From positions 1-20,840 of the forward strand of contig JBGQMY010000022.1 of NCBI GenBank assembly GCA_041500865.1: a stretch of 20,840 nucleotides of DNA. Direction: 5' to 3'. How positions within the stretch are numbered: the stretch's first letter is position 1; each line of letters opens with the position of its first letter. Source of the stretch: Candidatus Micrarchaeia archaeon. Its GTDB lineage: Archaea > Micrarchaeota > Micrarchaeia > Anstonellales > J096. The position numbers and the translations under genes are program-made. The notes under the pieces were generated by a model, which saw only the letters and a program-made list of their open reading frames with translations, did no database searches and was not told the origin of the DNA. Shown piece by piece: positions 4,324 to 20,840 of this stretch.

Positions 4324-4899
4324 GTGAAAATCGCGAACTATTCCGAAAAGGGCGGGAAGGTCTCCTTTGACATAGCGGACGGCGACGTTAAGCTTGCCAA
4401 CACCCTGAGGAGGTACCTCATAAACGGCGTTCCTGTCTATGCGATAGACAAAATCGTGGTTTATGAGAACACGACCTCATTCTTCGACGAGTACATCGCG
4501 CACAGGATAGGCATGATACCGCTTACCACGCCGGAAGCGGACATAGACCCCGAGAAAATAGGGTTTTACCTTGACTTTGCCGGGCCTGGAACAGTGTATT
4601 CCAAGGACATCAAGAGCAACAGCGAGGCCGTGAAGGTCGCAATAGACGACATACCCATCATAAGGCTTCTGGAGGGCCAGGTCCTGCGCATTGAGTGCAA
4701 GGCAAAGAAGGACACGGGCAGGGAGCATGCCAAGTTCCAGTCCGGCATAGCGTCCTACGACATCGACGAGAAGGGGGCAATCCACTTCTGGGCGGAGAAC
4801 ATGCACCACATGGAAACGTCCGAGCTCATAAGGCGCGCGCTCAAGAAGATGGACGCGGACTTCAAGTCGCTTCACGAAGCGATAAAGGAAGCGAAATAG
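4324..4899 (+). CDS. rpoD: DNA-directed RNA polymerase subunit D (Rpo3), short form
   Basis: ANTLRR, ENTTSFFDEYIAHRIGMIPL, GPGTVYSKDI, IPIIRL..GQ, GREHAKFQ; GTG start; conserved position after rps11. Confidence 0.95.
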   Translation: MKIANYSEKGGKVSFDIADGDVKLANTLRRYLINGVPVYAIDKIVVYENTTSFFDEYIAHRIGMIPLTTPEADIDPEKIGFYLDFAGPGTVYSKDIKSNSEAVKVAIDDIPIIRLLEGQVLRIECKAKKDTGREHAKFQSGIASYDIDEKGAIHFWAENMHHMETSELIRRALKKMDADFKSLHEAIKEAK

Positions 4900-14539: not shown

Positions 14540-14562
14540 TTTTTAATTCCTTTGGCGCACAA
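14540..14562 (+). promoter_or_regulatory. Conserved TATA-like + TTTGGCGCACAA element, copy 2
   Basis: TTTTTAA-TTCC-TTTGGCGCACAA-TGAATCT-ATG(14570). Confidence 0.7.
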
Positions 14563-14569
14563 TGAATCT

Positions 14570-15346
14570 ATGCAGAAAAATCGGCTCCAAAGAAATATGC
14601 GGGCAAAGGAACAAGCTCAAATCAAAGTTGGCATTATCCCAAGCGGTAAGCTGGCAGCATTGCCAGCAAGTAAACAAAAACAATTCAATGATATGCTTAT
14701 CCATGCAGCCTTCAATGGCGACAATGACGAAATAAGGCGGCTCATCAAGGCAGGCGCAAACATAATGGCAACAGATGAGTGCGGAGAGACAGCCCTGCAT
14801 AACGCTGCATGTATGGGATATATAGAAACCTGCGCCATGATTATATCTGAATACGCAAATTCGGTCGGAGACGTAAAGAAACTGATTGCCGCAAAGAATC
14901 ATAAAGAAGATGAAAACGATGAAGAAGAAGAGGATGGAGGCAATACTGCCCTGCATATAGCTGCATATAACGGATACGTTAAGGTATGCAGACTGCTCAT
15001 AGATGAATACGCAAAAGCAGGGGGAAACGTAAAGAAACTGATTGCCAAAACGAATGATGGATTTTCAACAGCCCTTCACGATGCCGCAACCAACGTCAAC
15101 AGACCCAACAGCGAATCTAAAATTTGCGCTTTGCTGATTGAGAAGTATGCAGAAGCAGGCGGCGAGGTAAGAAAGCTCATTGCCATAAAGGATGTATGGG
15201 GAAGGACAGCCCAGCAAAGAGCTGATGGAAATGAATGCATTAAAACGGCTAAGTTCCTAAAATCAATAAAAAAATTAATAAGAATAATGGAAAAGGAGGC
15301 ATTGGGTTCATTTATGAAGTCTTTCACCGAGTGTGTTGCCGCCTAA
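14570..15346 (+). CDS. Ankyrin-repeat protein (258 aa)
   Basis: LIHAAFNG...LIKAGANI, GETALHNAA.MG, GNTALHIAAYNG, STALHDAA, GRTA; start set at 14570 by the upstream element and to avoid overlapping top6A. Confidence 0.9.
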   Translation: MQKNRLQRNMRAKEQAQIKVGIIPSGKLAALPASKQKQFNDMLIHAAFNGDNDEIRRLIKAGANIMATDECGETALHNAACMGYIETCAMIISEYANSVGDVKKLIAAKNHKEDENDEEEEDGGNTALHIAAYNGYVKVCRLLIDEYAKAGGNVKKLIAKTNDGFSTALHDAATNVNRPNSESKICALLIEKYAEAGGEVRKLIAIKDVWGRTAQQRADGNECIKTAKFLKSIKKLIRIMEKEALGSFMKSFTECVAA

Positions 15347-15347
15347 C

Positions 15348-15845
15348 TTATAGACCAACGCATTCCGAGAAGCTGGGCAGGAAATATTTGAATTGTTCCC
15401 TGCCAGTCAGCCACGACAGGAGCCCTGCATAAAAAAGGAAATCCGCTGTTTTTTGGCATTCTCCTGAACGTCTGCCATAGCCCATTCCTGATTTGGCAAA
15501 TCTTAGCGCAGAGTTACCGGAGTCACTTTTTTCATCCAGGTTTGCGCCGTTTGCAAGCAGGAATACGCATACATCGGTGCGCCCGTAAAATGCGGCCATC
15601 ATAAGCGGCGTTATGCCAACAAAGGCATTTATGTTGACATTGGCGCCGGCTGAGACAAGCTCTTTTATGCGTTCCCAATCTCCAGATTGGGGATCGTTGT
15701 TGAACTTAGACTTTATCATGCCGGCAAGCTCTTGATTAAGCCTGATCTCTGATACCGCGCGTTCCGGGCTAAGCTTTTTCAGCAATAGGATTGATTTTTT
15801 TGCAATGCTCTTGGCCCTTTCGCGGAACGTCCTGCGCTCTGCCAT
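15348..15845 (-). CDS. Ankyrin-repeat protein (165 aa)
   Basis: LVSAGANVN, GITPLMMAAFYGRTDVCVFLLANGANLD, GNSALRFA; convergent with the previous gene, stops 1 nt apart. Confidence 0.9.
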   Translation of the reverse strand: MAERRTFRERAKSIAKKSILLLKKLSPERAVSEIRLNQELAGMIKSKFNNDPQSGDWERIKELVSAGANVNINAFVGITPLMMAAFYGRTDVCVFLLANGANLDEKSDSGNSALRFAKSGMGYGRRSGECQKTADFLFYAGLLSWLTGREQFKYFLPSFSECVGL

Positions 15846-15853
15846 GCCTCCTT

Positions 15854-15876
15854 TTGTGCGGCAAACAGGTTAAAAA
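15854..15876 (-). promoter_or_regulatory. Conserved TATA-like + TTTGCCGCACAA element, copy 3
   Basis: Minus strand TTTTTAA-CCTG-TTTGCCGCACAA-AAGGAGGC-ATG(15845). Confidence 0.7.
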
Positions 15877-17550: not shown

Positions 17551-19971
17551 TCAGCCAATCTGCGCATTGGGCGCATAAATCCTTATTTTCGCGTCCATTG
17601 CCTTGTAGTATGCGTCGCTGGCGCAGCCCCCGCAAGCGTCTATCGCGCCCATGTAGGCTGAAAGCACCTGCGTGCCATACTGTATCTTCGGGTATGCGCC
17701 CTTCACCTTTGAGTAGAACGTGACTGGGTCCATTTTTGCGTTTCCGCAGACGCCATACTGGTTCTTGTAGTTCCATTTCTTGTTGTCGTAGCTGCAGCAC
17801 AGGGACTGGCCGATGCTGTTCATCTTGCCGCAGTCGCTGCCCTTGTCCACGTTGGGCCTGAAGCTGCTCCAAAGCGGGACGTATGTGTCAGACCCGCTGC
17901 TTATTGGGTTCCCGTAATAGCGCTCTGCAGTGAACTCAACTGTCAGGGCGTCCCTGAGGTTCTGGTTGTCTGCATCTGAAAATGACGAGACGTTGAATAT
18001 GTCGCGGTTGTTGGACACCGCGGAAGACGCATCAGGAAGGAACTGCCACGCTATCTTATAGGCTGCTGCGCAGATGCTGTGGCTGGCATTGAACGGGTTG
18101 AAGCTGGCGCCGCCGCATGCCTTCACCTCCGGAGGCATCGCAAGGCCGCGCTGCGCATACATGGCGCCTGGCAAATCAGTGGTCTGCATCATGCCGCTCG
18201 CGCAGATGGTGTACTGCGGCTGGGGCGCGCCTGGCTGCCGGCTGTTGTCATAAGGCGGGTCAGGCATGGAATTTACGTCGCACCCTGCCTGGCCTGCTGC
18301 GTCCACAATGTCGGACTTGTGTACGACTATCCCTGTGCACTTGGATGCGTCGCTTGCATTAAGGTATGAGATGGCGCAGTGGTCAAAACCGGATTCCTGC
18401 TGCGCGATGGCCCTCAGAAGGTTTGAGTCTATGTCGTAAAGCTCGCCGTAGAACTCCATCCTGCGTATGGCGTCATCGGGCTTGGTGCAGTGCGAGCTGT
18501 CAAAGCTGCCCTTGATGCCCTTGAGGAAGGGCGGCGTGTCCTTTGAGTCGTAGATGAGGAAGCATGCCTTGCACCTGTACGTCTGGTCTTCCTTGTTCCC
18601 GTAGTTCACGTCGGCAAGGGGCACGTAGTCGCCCGTGCTCTGCCTTCCCCCGTACGTCATCGTCTTCTCCGGAATGAAGTCAAGGACCCCGCACTTGTCC
18701 CCCAACGGCGAAGTGTCAATCGCAAAAAGCTGGAAGTTCCTGTTTCCGTAGTAGTTTTGGCACAAGGAGAACCACGTGGACGAGGCGCTCTGCCTCAGCG
18801 ACGGGCTTGACAAATCCGGGTTCATGAACGACATGTTTTCAACGGGCTCGAAGAACGCGTCTGAATAGAACGGCTCGGGGGACATGCCAAGCACGCCGTT
18901 TTTGGACATTTCTGGTATGTCGTTGAACATCAGCCAGAAAATCTTGCGCTCCTCGAAGTCGCTCCACCTGCACGCGCTCCTGTTGATGTTTACGTAATAC
19001 CAGAAGGTCGGCTTGCCGTACTTCGCCCTTATCGCAGTGCTCGCCTCCTCTGCCAGGCCCTCAAGATGGTCTCCTGAGCCGCAGTTCGTGTCGTTGTTGT
19101 CAACAAGGTAGTCGCTGTCGATGCCGAAGCCGACGAAATCAACGTACTGCAGCGAGTCGTAGCCCGATTCATTCAGCGCATTGAGCATCTTGGTGCCGTT
19201 GGGCCCGTTCCTTATGGACAATCCGACCATGCAGTTCGGGCAGTTGAGCCTTATCTCCCTTATCTCGTTGTTTATCTTCCCTATGTTGCCGTCGCTTGAC
19301 TGGGGGTTCATCTCAGTCGCTATCATCACGGGGCCCAAACCTGACATCTGGCTTGCGAAGTCCGCAGCGTTCTCCTGGTCTGGGACTGTGCCGTTGTTGT
19401 AGAGTATGTAGAGCGGAATCACGCTCTTGTCAAGGAAGCACGCCGCTCCGGAATACGACTTCGGCGAAAATGAGTATTTCACTCCGTCAAGGGAGCGGAC
19501 CAGCTTGACCGCATACCTGAGCGAATTGTTGCAGTACGGGTTGGCGTCGTTGAAGTCCGCAAAGCTCATGCCCTGGCCTATGCCGAACTCGCGCGCATAG
19601 TAGACGCCCTTGCTTAGGTTGGTCATGGTATCGTTCTTGTTCTCGTTCGTGACGTTCTGGAGCCAGCAGCTGCCGCCGATGAGCGAGGGGTCCATCCATT
19701 GCCAGTAGCGAGCGCTGTAGTACATGAACTTTACCCACTTGCTGAAAGAGGACGTGGCCTTTGAGGCGTTCTGGCACACCAGTATGCTGCAGCTTCCCTG
19801 GCTGAGGTAGGCGTCCAGCTTCGCCTTGTCCACGCTCATGTTCGGATTCATGATGGTGTTGCTGTCTATAAGATACTGATTCGTGCTTGAGGCTATCATG
19901 CTTTGCGTGCATCCTGAAAGCAGCGCCAAGGAAATTATGACTGTCAATGCCAAAACCTGTGCCTTATCCAT
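17551..19971 (-). CDS. Large Cys-rich lipoprotein with putative glycoside-hydrolase-like TIM barrel and SLT/GH23 lytic transglycosylase domain
   Basis: Signal MDKAQVLALTVIISLALLSG|C (lipobox); SLT motifs YDIDSNLLRAIAQQESGF, ASGMMQ, NPFNASHSICAAA; many N-x-S/T sequons. Start 19971 after TGAGGT, or 19986 by ATGA overlap. Confidence 0.8.
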   Translation of the reverse strand: MDKAQVLALTVIISLALLSGCTQSMIASSTNQYLIDSNTIMNPNMSVDKAKLDAYLSQGSCSILVCQNASKATSSFSKWVKFMYYSARYWQWMDPSLIGGSCWLQNVTNENKNDTMTNLSKGVYYAREFGIGQGMSFADFNDANPYCNNSLRYAVKLVRSLDGVKYSFSPKSYSGAACFLDKSVIPLYILYNNGTVPDQENAADFASQMSGLGPVMIATEMNPQSSDGNIGKINNEIREIRLNCPNCMVGLSIRNGPNGTKMLNALNESGYDSLQYVDFVGFGIDSDYLVDNNDTNCGSGDHLEGLAEEASTAIRAKYGKPTFWYYVNINRSACRWSDFEERKIFWLMFNDIPEMSKNGVLGMSPEPFYSDAFFEPVENMSFMNPDLSSPSLRQSASSTWFSLCQNYYGNRNFQLFAIDTSPLGDKCGVLDFIPEKTMTYGGRQSTGDYVPLADVNYGNKEDQTYRCKACFLIYDSKDTPPFLKGIKGSFDSSHCTKPDDAIRRMEFYGELYDIDSNLLRAIAQQESGFDHCAISYLNASDASKCTGIVVHKSDIVDAAGQAGCDVNSMPDPPYDNSRQPGAPQPQYTICASGMMQTTDLPGAMYAQRGLAMPPEVKACGGASFNPFNASHSICAAAYKIAWQFLPDASSAVSNNRDIFNVSSFSDADNQNLRDALTVEFTAERYYGNPISSGSDTYVPLWSSFRPNVDKGSDCGKMNSIGQSLCCSYDNKKWNYKNQYGVCGNAKMDPVTFYSKVKGAYPKIQYGTQVLSAYMGAIDACGGCASDAYYKAMDAKIRIYAPNAQIG

Positions 19972-19982
19972 TGTCAAAAACC

Positions 19983-20840
19983 TCATTTGTACTCTACGCC
20001 GCATTGCGTGCATGAGCCTGCCCCCCTTCTCACAAGGCTGCCGCACTGGCTGCATTTCATCATGTAGTTGGTTCCGCCTAGCGTTACTGCCGCTATGTTC
20101 AGCGGCGCTGAAAGCGTACTTGCAAAGAAGTTTGCGGTCGCGCCCCCTACTTTTTTGGCAAAACGCTTTGGCGCTGCTTCTGGCCGTCCGGTCAGCGGGT
20201 CTATCGGTCCTTCCTCCTCCATAGCGTCCCTGGCTCTGTCGTATATGTTGTTCAATCCCCTTTCCACTGTGCTGGACAGGAAGTTTGTTGCTATGAGCGG
20301 GTTTATCATTATGCCCATTGCGTGCCTTGACGGCGAATAGTACGAAAGCTCCTGCTCCCTCTTGAAATAGTCGTCCACAATCGTGGTGTGCCTCTTCCTT
20401 ATGCTTAACGACGCATACGCAAGGTCGTCCTTGTCGGCCATGTTCATGGAGCTGGTCTTAGGCTCCTTGAAAACCCATTGGTCTCTGCCCGGATCCTCGT
20501 TCCGCTTCCATTCCTGTGTCTTGAACTCATAAAGGTTGTAGACCTTCCATTGCTGGGCCGGCTCCACGACGTGCCTGCCCGTGCCCCATTGGAAATGCTC
20601 CCTGCCAGGTATGTCCGCAGGCGTGCCGAACTCGTTTGAGTACCAGTAGAAGTGCGATGAGACTCTCCTTGCGAGATGTGTTTCCTCCTTGTCGGCTATC
20701 GCGCTCCCCTCATTGGGGTTTGTGGAAGCTATCCAGTTTCCGACAGGCTCCATCCTCTTCTTTGACCAGGACCAGACGTTCGCCCCTCCTAACCTCTTCC
20801 ACAGGTCAATTCCTTCTGAAGTGTCTGAGTCTGTCTTGAA
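19983..20840 (-). CDS. Partial CDS (5' end outside window), hypothetical protein with C-terminal zinc ribbon
   Basis: Frame stays open from 20753 to the window edge (FKTDSDTSEGIDLWKRLGGANVWSWSKKR precedes the listed Met); ends CSQCG-x8-CTQCG; tightly coupled to the SLT lipoprotein gene. Confidence 0.8.
   Translation of the reverse strand, partial: FKTDSDTSEGIDLWKRLGGANVWSWSKKRMEPVGNWIASTNPNEGSAIADKEETHLARRVSSHFYWYSNEFGTPADIPGREHFQWGTGRHVVEPAQQWKVYNLYEFKTQEWKRNEDPGRDQWVFKEPKTSSMNMADKDDLAYASLSIRKRHTTIVDDYFKREQELSYYSPSRHAMGIMINPLIATNFLSSTVERGLNNIYDRARDAMEEEGPIDPLTGRPEAAPKRFAKKVGGATANFFASTLSAPLNIAAVTLGGTNYMMKCSQCGSLVRRGAGSCTQCGVEYK

Follow-up and report, generated by a model that had tools for sequence, protein, structure and literature searches.

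A cysteine-bearing C-terminal tail shared by a large ankyrin-repeat family in a genus of Micrarchaeota

Examining a 20,840-nucleotide stretch of archaeal DNA (here called the window), we found two ankyrin-repeat genes that lie tail to tail and whose products end in the same short element. The plus-strand gene (14570..15346) encodes a 258-residue protein with a basic N-terminal leader and the C-terminus CVAA, and the minus-strand gene (15348..15845) encodes a 165-residue protein, likewise with a basic leader, that ends in CVGL. Each ATG is abutted by a promoter of the same family type (TTTTTAA box ... CACAAT), at 14540..14569 on the plus strand and 15846..15876 on the minus strand. The Pfam matches of both proteins are to ankyrin families only, and the Ank repeats above cut-off together with the ankyrin fold class them as ankyrin-repeat proteins. 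The two stop codons (15344-15346, plus; 15348-15350, minus) are separated by one nucleotide, and the last 37 residues of the two proteins align without gaps at 15 of 37 identical positions, both as the first-pass annotation had described. In run X3, which belongs to a second study, one contig covers 15176-15448 without a single difference, indicating that the stop-stop junction is no assembly artefact. All six sequencing runs with matching DNA are sediment metagenomes, three of them containing at least half of the words and one, X1, being possibly where this DNA comes from, and none of the runs found is an RNA dataset containing window DNA. Elsewhere in the window, the plus-strand ankyrin protein carries an acidic run (EDENDEEEEDGG) between its repeats (14900-14940), and an 834-residue protein (17551-20055, minus) combines a hydrophobic N-terminal stretch with a weak match to transglycosylase SLT at residues 538-567 (E 6e-4, below cut-off).

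The shared 37 codons occupy 15233..15343 in the plus-strand gene, where, judged from a paralogue's model, they would form the end of the last ankyrin helix, a linker helix and the tail helix, and 15351..15461 in the minus-strand gene. An AlphaFold2 model of the minus-strand protein (pLDDT 87.5), taken with the alignment, divides them into an extended last ankyrin helix (residues 127-147), a Gly and a tail helix (149-163), with pLDDT values of 94, 88 and then 68 in the final block. In this model the segment opens (ECxKTAxFL) with helix two of the last ankyrin repeat, and the specific motif is, as modelled, about 16 final residues, narrower than the 37 noted at first. Its core reads F-x3-F-x2-C-V-A-A in the plus-strand gene (15311..15343; Cys codon 15332-15334) and F-x3-F-x2-C-V-G-L in the minus-strand gene (15351..15383; Cys codon 15360-15362).

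The genome that contains the window (G000; 1,043,478 bases in 36 contigs, 92% complete) carries an archaeal 16S gene (G000:C12:22572-24065), and its RNA-polymerase subunit gene at window 4324-4896 has its closest named relatives in Micrarchaeia/Micrarchaeota MAGs (91, 80, 56 and 54%), with an Anstonellales MAG at 47%. A profile made from the genome's own repeats detects 118 ankyrin ORFs, 115 of them with a stop; set against 928 non-ankyrin proteins in rough gene calls, these represent about 11% of the genes. Ninety-four end in F-x3-F-x2-C-[VI]-small-small. The family is also marked at its start, with a net leader charge of +4.9 over 30 residues versus +0.65, and by the promoter directly before the ATG: 55 of 64 sites scoring at least 25 bits precede ankyrin genes, using a matrix trained on the ankyrin genes themselves. 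The same promoter type stands before five non-ankyrin genes (G000:C13:22697, C12:25008, C17:6451, C10:16027 and C8:17963), namely a cupin, two methyltransferase-like genes, a PknB-type kinase and an orphan, several with charged low-complexity leaders and none with the tail. The leader of the cupin gene resembles an ankyrin leader by eye, but no alignment supported homology.

The 21 complete ankyrin ORFs outside the tailed count comprise three with a hydrophobic signal peptide (all three such ankyrins are without the tail), three whose tail lies in another frame or past the stop, one with Cys at -14, one in which Arg replaces Cys, and about 13 seemingly intact paralogues without a tail. Matches severed from any ankyrin frame occur at G000:C1:17381-17443, C12:12189-12263, C23:1218-1259, C17:1056-1112 and C11:280-333 and are marks of copy decay in a family with gene gain and loss. 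Trees of the ankyrin parts carry too weak a signal to order the gains and losses of the tail or to count the origins of its Gln ends. Eleven of the 94 tailed genes are translationally coupled to a downstream gene, and some of the ends with Cys at -5 or -6 and some Lys-containing ends are among them. In two head-to-tail arrays (G000:C1:52261-54759 and C25:4701-7796), the next ATG lies at or just past the stop, and Gly-Gly or Lys-Gly follows the Cys.

Aligned on Cys as position 0, the tail has Phe at -7 and -3, Val or Ile at +1, small residues at -8, -4, +2 and +3, an acidic residue at -1 and Gly at -14. Widening the set to 182 tails, drawn from 226 distinct ends of G000, of the loci read in its congeners G001 and G002 and of 46 library representatives, we found Cys in 181 even when its column was left unscored; the sole Cys-less tail sits in a gene that looks broken, and Ala, Ser or Val replaces Cys in none of the 182. 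Counted from the C-terminus, Cys lies at -4 in both window proteins, as first reported, but this is not a family rule: in the 94 tails of G000 it stands at -3 in 20, -4 in 56, -5 in 12, -6 in four, and -10 and -11 in one each, and in the wider set at -3 in 41, -4 in 109, -5 in 18 and -6 in 10, with four longer. Measured from Cys, the chain ends three to five residues away in 168 of 182 and 6 to 16 residues past it in the other 14. A Cys at -4 occurs in 42 of 95 clustered ankyrin proteins versus 11 of 927 other called proteins, an excess of terminal Cys far beyond chance. However, this family also places Cys at a buried position of the ankyrin repeat (121 of 134 repeats), so conservation of the tail Cys need not mean thiol chemistry.

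The identity of the last residue follows the terminus. Gln fills the second position after Cys in 11 of 42 tails where that position is terminal versus 1 of 137 where it is internal, and the third position in 27 of 109 versus 0 of 28; it is the final residue in 38 of 179 tails, within an overall bias to Ala, Gln, Gly and Ser. Among paralogues that are not independent in these counts, the last residue is under selection and, on this sequence pattern, appears to be read as a terminus rather than as a helix position. A DNA or RNA element beneath the motif was considered and rejected, since synonymous codons alternate at the Phe, Glu and Ser positions and each of the three stops is in use (54 TGA, 21 TAG, 19 TAA). 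The constraint therefore acts on the protein, and the mixture of stops also speaks against readthrough. Gln ends are often paired with TAG (9 of 14 in G000). The tail helix is amphipathic (hydrophobic moment 0.46 versus 0.27 when shuffled) and carries a net charge of 0.06 over the last 25 residues, so that it is not basic. Its distance from the last repeat varies by one turn of helix and is most often 14 or 18 residues. In the nine closest cross-genome pairs, its core is conserved at 60%, compared with 61% for the repeats.

A tail profile built from 55 of the 94 G000 tails matched 91, 25 and 34 times in the genus's three genomes, whereas among the other 28 relatives two had a single weak match each, neither at an ankyrin end; over a sample of 301 phylum genomes it matched G000 and G002 only. 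By these profile searches the tail is confined to the genus of G000. Among 1.84 billion representatives there were 46 matches, some of them G000's own proteins, all C-terminal, of which 43 are ankyrin proteins and three are fragments shorter than 50 residues. No Pfam family is common to the 55 tails scanned, comparison with PDB sequences yielded one weak match (DAD1, E 0.23), and fold searches returned ankyrin proteins in which the tail helix was barely covered, the ESM Atlas returning generic ankyrins.

Separate ankyrin expansions exist elsewhere in Micrarchaeota, with 70-116 first-look candidates in each of five genomes (G120, G008, G183, G078 and G127), and in the stretches read every one retains a distinct terminal segment. 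Of 85 complete ankyrin ORFs from ten other Micrarchaeota genomes, none places Cys among its final six residues. The ankyrins of G008, a genome of the same family (L060-L070, L135-L153), carry L-x3-L-x2-C-[DN]-K followed by another helix, with Cys at -13 to -18. This Cys helix gave 19 matches, all in G008 among 31 genomes, and its homology to the G000 tail was rejected, there being no profile match.

Across the library's 46 matches and the loci that were read, one non-ankyrin protein of G000 ends in F-x3-F-x2-C (G000:C13:15921-16910; L003:5922-6911, minus). It has 330 residues, a basic leader and a predicted all-helical fold, and in its four-member family (56-62% identity) the two Phe, an Asp and the Cys are invariant. 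For the strict pattern, which was defined with the family already in view, the chance expectation over the ends of 928 proteins is 0.0013. Since this protein scores only 5.6 bits against the tail profile and is conserved over its whole length, the match is only suggestive of the tail signal on a second, helical scaffold. Structure prediction for this protein gave a model of middling confidence, weak over the tail, with designed helical repeats as the best fold match (Z 7.0), and the protein was not found in 30 relatives.

The first-pass annotation had likened the tail to the CaaX prenylation pattern. The canonical pattern does not describe it: Cys is at -4 in 56 of 94 tails (109 of 182 in the wider set) and otherwise at -3, -5, -6 or further in, and a2, mostly Ala, Gly or Ser, is aliphatic (V/I/L/M) in 1 of 94. 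With Cys variable in position and a2 almost never aliphatic, the tail is not a canonical CaaX. A yeast Ydj1 screen covering all 8000 CXXX sequences offers a broader measure; as presented in its text and tables, farnesylation is blocked by a charged a2 and by K, P or R at X, with Q at X as the sole positive pattern (PMC10320760). In its Ydj1 table, 47 of the 56 four-residue G000 ends (26 of 34 distinct) reach an HM score of at least 3, and four of the nine below it come from one coupled array whose ends overlap the start region of the next gene. CVGL, described in the earlier annotation as a poor fit, does have a non-aliphatic a2, but it scores 3.25 against the cut-off of 3, and CVAA scores 4.81 and appears as 100% farnesylated in Table 3 of the same paper. 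Under the simple rule given there, 90 of the 109 wider ends pass, compared with 71% of all CXXX; the figure is 527 of 928 among proteome ends and 531 of 751 among internal controls. Moreover, three-, four- and five-residue Cys ends have been described as farnesyltransferase substrates in the portion of PMC11121372 available to us, and M, S, Q, A or C as the last residue favours this enzyme in the corresponding portion of PMC12493179; one of these five ends 110 of 179 tails versus 186 of 928 other proteins. The tail ends appear compatible with shunt farnesylation and are modestly enriched for it, by a permissive test that is no proof.

The enzymes of such a pathway were sought in G000 itself. 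At 92% completeness, it has no match to the prenyltransferase alpha, beta or cyclase-fold families (PF00432, PF01239, PF13243), the beta search having matched in 1 of 31 relatives with no control matched, and a DHHC search, run without a positive control, gave no match either. A Rce1-like gene is found in 18 of 31 genomes overall and in 0 of 3 of the genus. Present are an M48 peptidase and an ICMT-family membrane methyltransferase gene (G000:C6; L219:1117-1836), which adjoins a gene labelled RuBisCO-like by eye.

Putting these observations together, we tentatively favour the reading that the tail is a membrane-anchoring tag read in trans, its Cys lipidated and likely so in a host. The ankyrin proteins would be exported from the archaeon, as presumed from the basic leader and from the presence of conjugation-type ATPases and pilin-like genes; an enzyme would recognise Cys together with the carboxylate at the chain end, in the manner of the non-canonical shunt route for CXXX sequences; and after the presumed export the Cys would be prenylated, most likely by a host farnesyltransferase. 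The amphipathic helix would assist the lipid anchor, its two Phe providing a second contact with membrane or pocket, and the variable ankyrin parts would bind different targets. Certainty falls along this chain, from a reader in trans through the Cys thiol plus carboxylate, the lipid anchor and the host enzyme to a eukaryotic host. Counted for a lipid anchor are the near-invariant Cys, the chain end mostly three to five residues from it, the Gln that tracks the terminus, the yeast scores, the helix moment, the lack of the tail on signal-peptide ankyrins and the share of genes given over to ankyrins. Counted against it are the permissiveness of the yeast test, which most CXXX pass, the non-independence of paralogues, the unmet canonical a2, the 14 ends that run 6 to 16 residues past Cys, the Cys at a buried repeat position, the Phe helix with no linker before the Cys, and the other Micrarchaeota expansions without terminal Cys. 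Prenylation sites usually come after a flexible linker rather than a Phe-bearing helix.

Compared with known systems, such an anchor would have precedents that differ in kind. Like shunt farnesylation ends such as CASQ of yeast Ydj1 (PMC10320760), the tail has Cys near the C-terminus, a small non-aliphatic a2 and Gln, Ala or Ser last, but it belongs to an archaeon without a prenyltransferase match, is preceded by a conserved Phe-bearing helix and has Cys from -3 to -6. The Legionella effector AnkB, with other host-prenylated or palmitoylated effectors as treated in part of PMC4951486, likewise combines ankyrin repeats with a C-terminal Cys open to lipidation by a host enzyme; AnkB, however, is a single F-box protein with a CaaX end, whereas here there are about 94 paralogues with non-canonical ends, from an archaeal source. 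The two ankyrin proteins of the window match Ank families only, and searches of G000 for the F-box (PF12937) and for an ATP/ADP translocase, both run without a positive control (that for the F-box having matched nowhere), gave no match. In its working, the tail would be comparable to a non-canonical CXXX anchor carried by ankyrin effectors, outside the canonical CaaX, BC-box and PRANC kinds.

If the reader were a farnesyltransferase, the host would be a eukaryote. The corresponding picture is doubtful: the genus would live as a symbiont or parasite on a eukaryote, for instance a protist of the sediment, export ankyrin effectors through a conjugation-type machine and have them anchored at the tail Cys by the host's farnesyltransferase. 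Among bacteria, ankyrin-rich proteomes mark symbionts of eukaryotes, and these resemble G000 in joining a small genome to many ankyrin genes, as far as the survey in PMC3932732 describes them. Against a eukaryotic host stand cultured Micrarchaeota, which live on archaeal hosts according to the part of bioRxiv 2025.05.29.656868 available to us, and the weak transglycosylase-like window protein, which points to bacterial cell walls. To our knowledge, the known partners of DPANN archaea are other archaea.

The tail could instead serve export without any lipid, which we consider somewhat unlikely; the helix and free C-terminus would dock on the archaeon's conjugation-type machine or a chaperone, in analogy to the C-terminal signals of type IV secretion substrates. 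G000 encodes a VirB4/CedB-like ATPase (G000:C1:83636-85216) and a TraD/TrwB-like ATPase cut by the contig end (C5:2-1399), besides weak T4SS-pilin matches and two arrays of six and five unnamed polytopic membrane genes; the ATPases, pilin-like genes and membrane-gene arrays lie at C1:79972-86062, C5:2-1399, C1:6770-14363, C16:12894-19319, C6:6540-7230, C15:1-273 and C29:5977-6804. The selected last residue, the untailed signal-peptide ankyrins and the distinct terminal segments kept by other expansions are all in keeping with an export signal. However, the machine matches fall below curated cut-offs except for Pfam DUF87/AAA_10/TraG/TrwB, and the VirB4-like gene is found in 30 of 31 relatives and therefore does not track the tail, which only the genus of G000 has. 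Moreover, the promoter-sharing non-ankyrin genes have no tail, the basic leader is the broader candidate signal, the tail is not basic, and an export role leaves the Cys unexplained.

Descent of a structural cap from a founder gene is unlikely but retains weight, because carriers are almost all paralogues (among the 46 library matches, everything but the three fragments is an ankyrin protein), every independent expansion has its own post-ankyrin segment, and the core is conserved like the repeats. Two helices would fold back on the last repeat, with both Phe and the Cys filling the core, in line with the confidently modelled helices that continue that repeat and with the use of Cys at a buried repeat position. 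A cap loses weight because about 13 paralogues have no tail, the spacing shifts by a turn and Gln tracks the terminus instead of the helix position; the Cys that is never replaced by Ala, Ser or Val and the invariant matching end in the non-ankyrin helical family also count against it. The first-pass annotation had named a capping helix of variable Cys position, found solely on close ankyrin paralogues, as the outcome that would tell against a signal. Cys does vary in position and nearly all carriers are paralogues, but these are not close, with a median identity of 34% among tailed paralogues.

Adaptor function is distinctly unlikely, although the architecture is a familiar one. Poxviral ANK/F-box (PRANC), ANK/BC and cellular ankyrin-SOCS-box proteins are likewise expanded ankyrins that share one short conserved C-terminal element, and in the BC box a key Cys lies on a helix as in the archaeal tail, going by the portion of PMC6232478 available to us; here, too, variable ankyrins would be substrate receptors and the tail would bind one shared scaffold. 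Groove binding would suit the small residues that flank the Phe stripe at -8 and -4, and the possible tail on a second helical scaffold would fit. However, BC-box spacing is L-x3-C-x3-phi as described there, whereas the archaeal tail has F-x3-F-x2-C and sits at the extreme end. The BC/SOCS pattern [TSP]-L-x3-[CSA]-x3-phi falls on the tail Cys in 2 of 94 tails and anywhere in the last 45 residues in 4 of 94, and the PRANC/F-box pattern phi-P-x2-phi-x3-phi is found in 1 of 94. An adaptor would need no free, selected last residue. Last, modification by the archaeon itself, in which an unrecognised transferase would act on the Cys, the M48 protease trim and the ICMT-family enzyme methylate to give an anchor in its own membrane, is very improbable. 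All 3 genomes of the genus carry the ICMT-family gene and none of 16 other genomes in the family does, but a gain shared by the genus counts only once; the gene has no ankyrin neighbour, scores 49 bits where the named enzyme requires 160, belongs to a family matched in 5 of 14 control genomes and is missing from G008 with its similar Cys helix, and the genome has no prenyltransferase, cyclase-fold or Rce1-like match.

Returning to a lipid-anchored tag, the broader suggestion of the first-pass annotation, that the tail is a shared signal for export, membrane targeting, lipidation or adaptor binding, gains from the blind-scored Cys, the selected last residue, the absence from signal-peptide ankyrins and the non-ankyrin match, while its canonical CaaX form falls away. 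The tail is a new motif on a family very large for an archaeon. A 2014 survey counted 15 ankyrin-bearing strains among 133 archaeal ones, and just four species with more than one ankyrin protein, so far as its available portion shows (PMC3932732), in contrast to the 118 ORFs of G000. A literature search that covered, among supplements, only that of PMC10320760 found nothing on an ankyrin expansion or a Cys tail in Micrarchaeota, and the word "ankyrin" is absent from the main text of PMC12892359 and PMC8204110.

VirB4-type machines in DPANN archaea have been proposed to secrete "yet unknown effectors", in the part of PMC10266531 available to us. With their common promoter, basic leader and Cys tail, the roughly 100 ankyrin proteins represent a concrete candidate effector set. 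If the tail is built for a eukaryotic enzyme, it would point to a eukaryotic host, and if the symbiont reading is true, this would be an archaeal counterpart of the AnkB strategy at hundredfold scale. Even as an export signal or a cap, it would be a motif without a match in Pfam or the PDB, carried by roughly one tenth of a proteome. The transglycosylase-like window protein, if of peptidoglycan type, would bear on the identity of the host.

Other Micrarchaeota show that ankyrin expansion has occurred repeatedly, each time with its own tails. Further expansions with conserved ends of their own were seen in G183:C12, G078, G203, G269 and G031, and that of G127 has a conserved N-terminal motif instead. 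In G120 (C1:686000-725999; L193, L194), a head-to-tail array holds 38 ankyrin ORFs in the 40 kb read.
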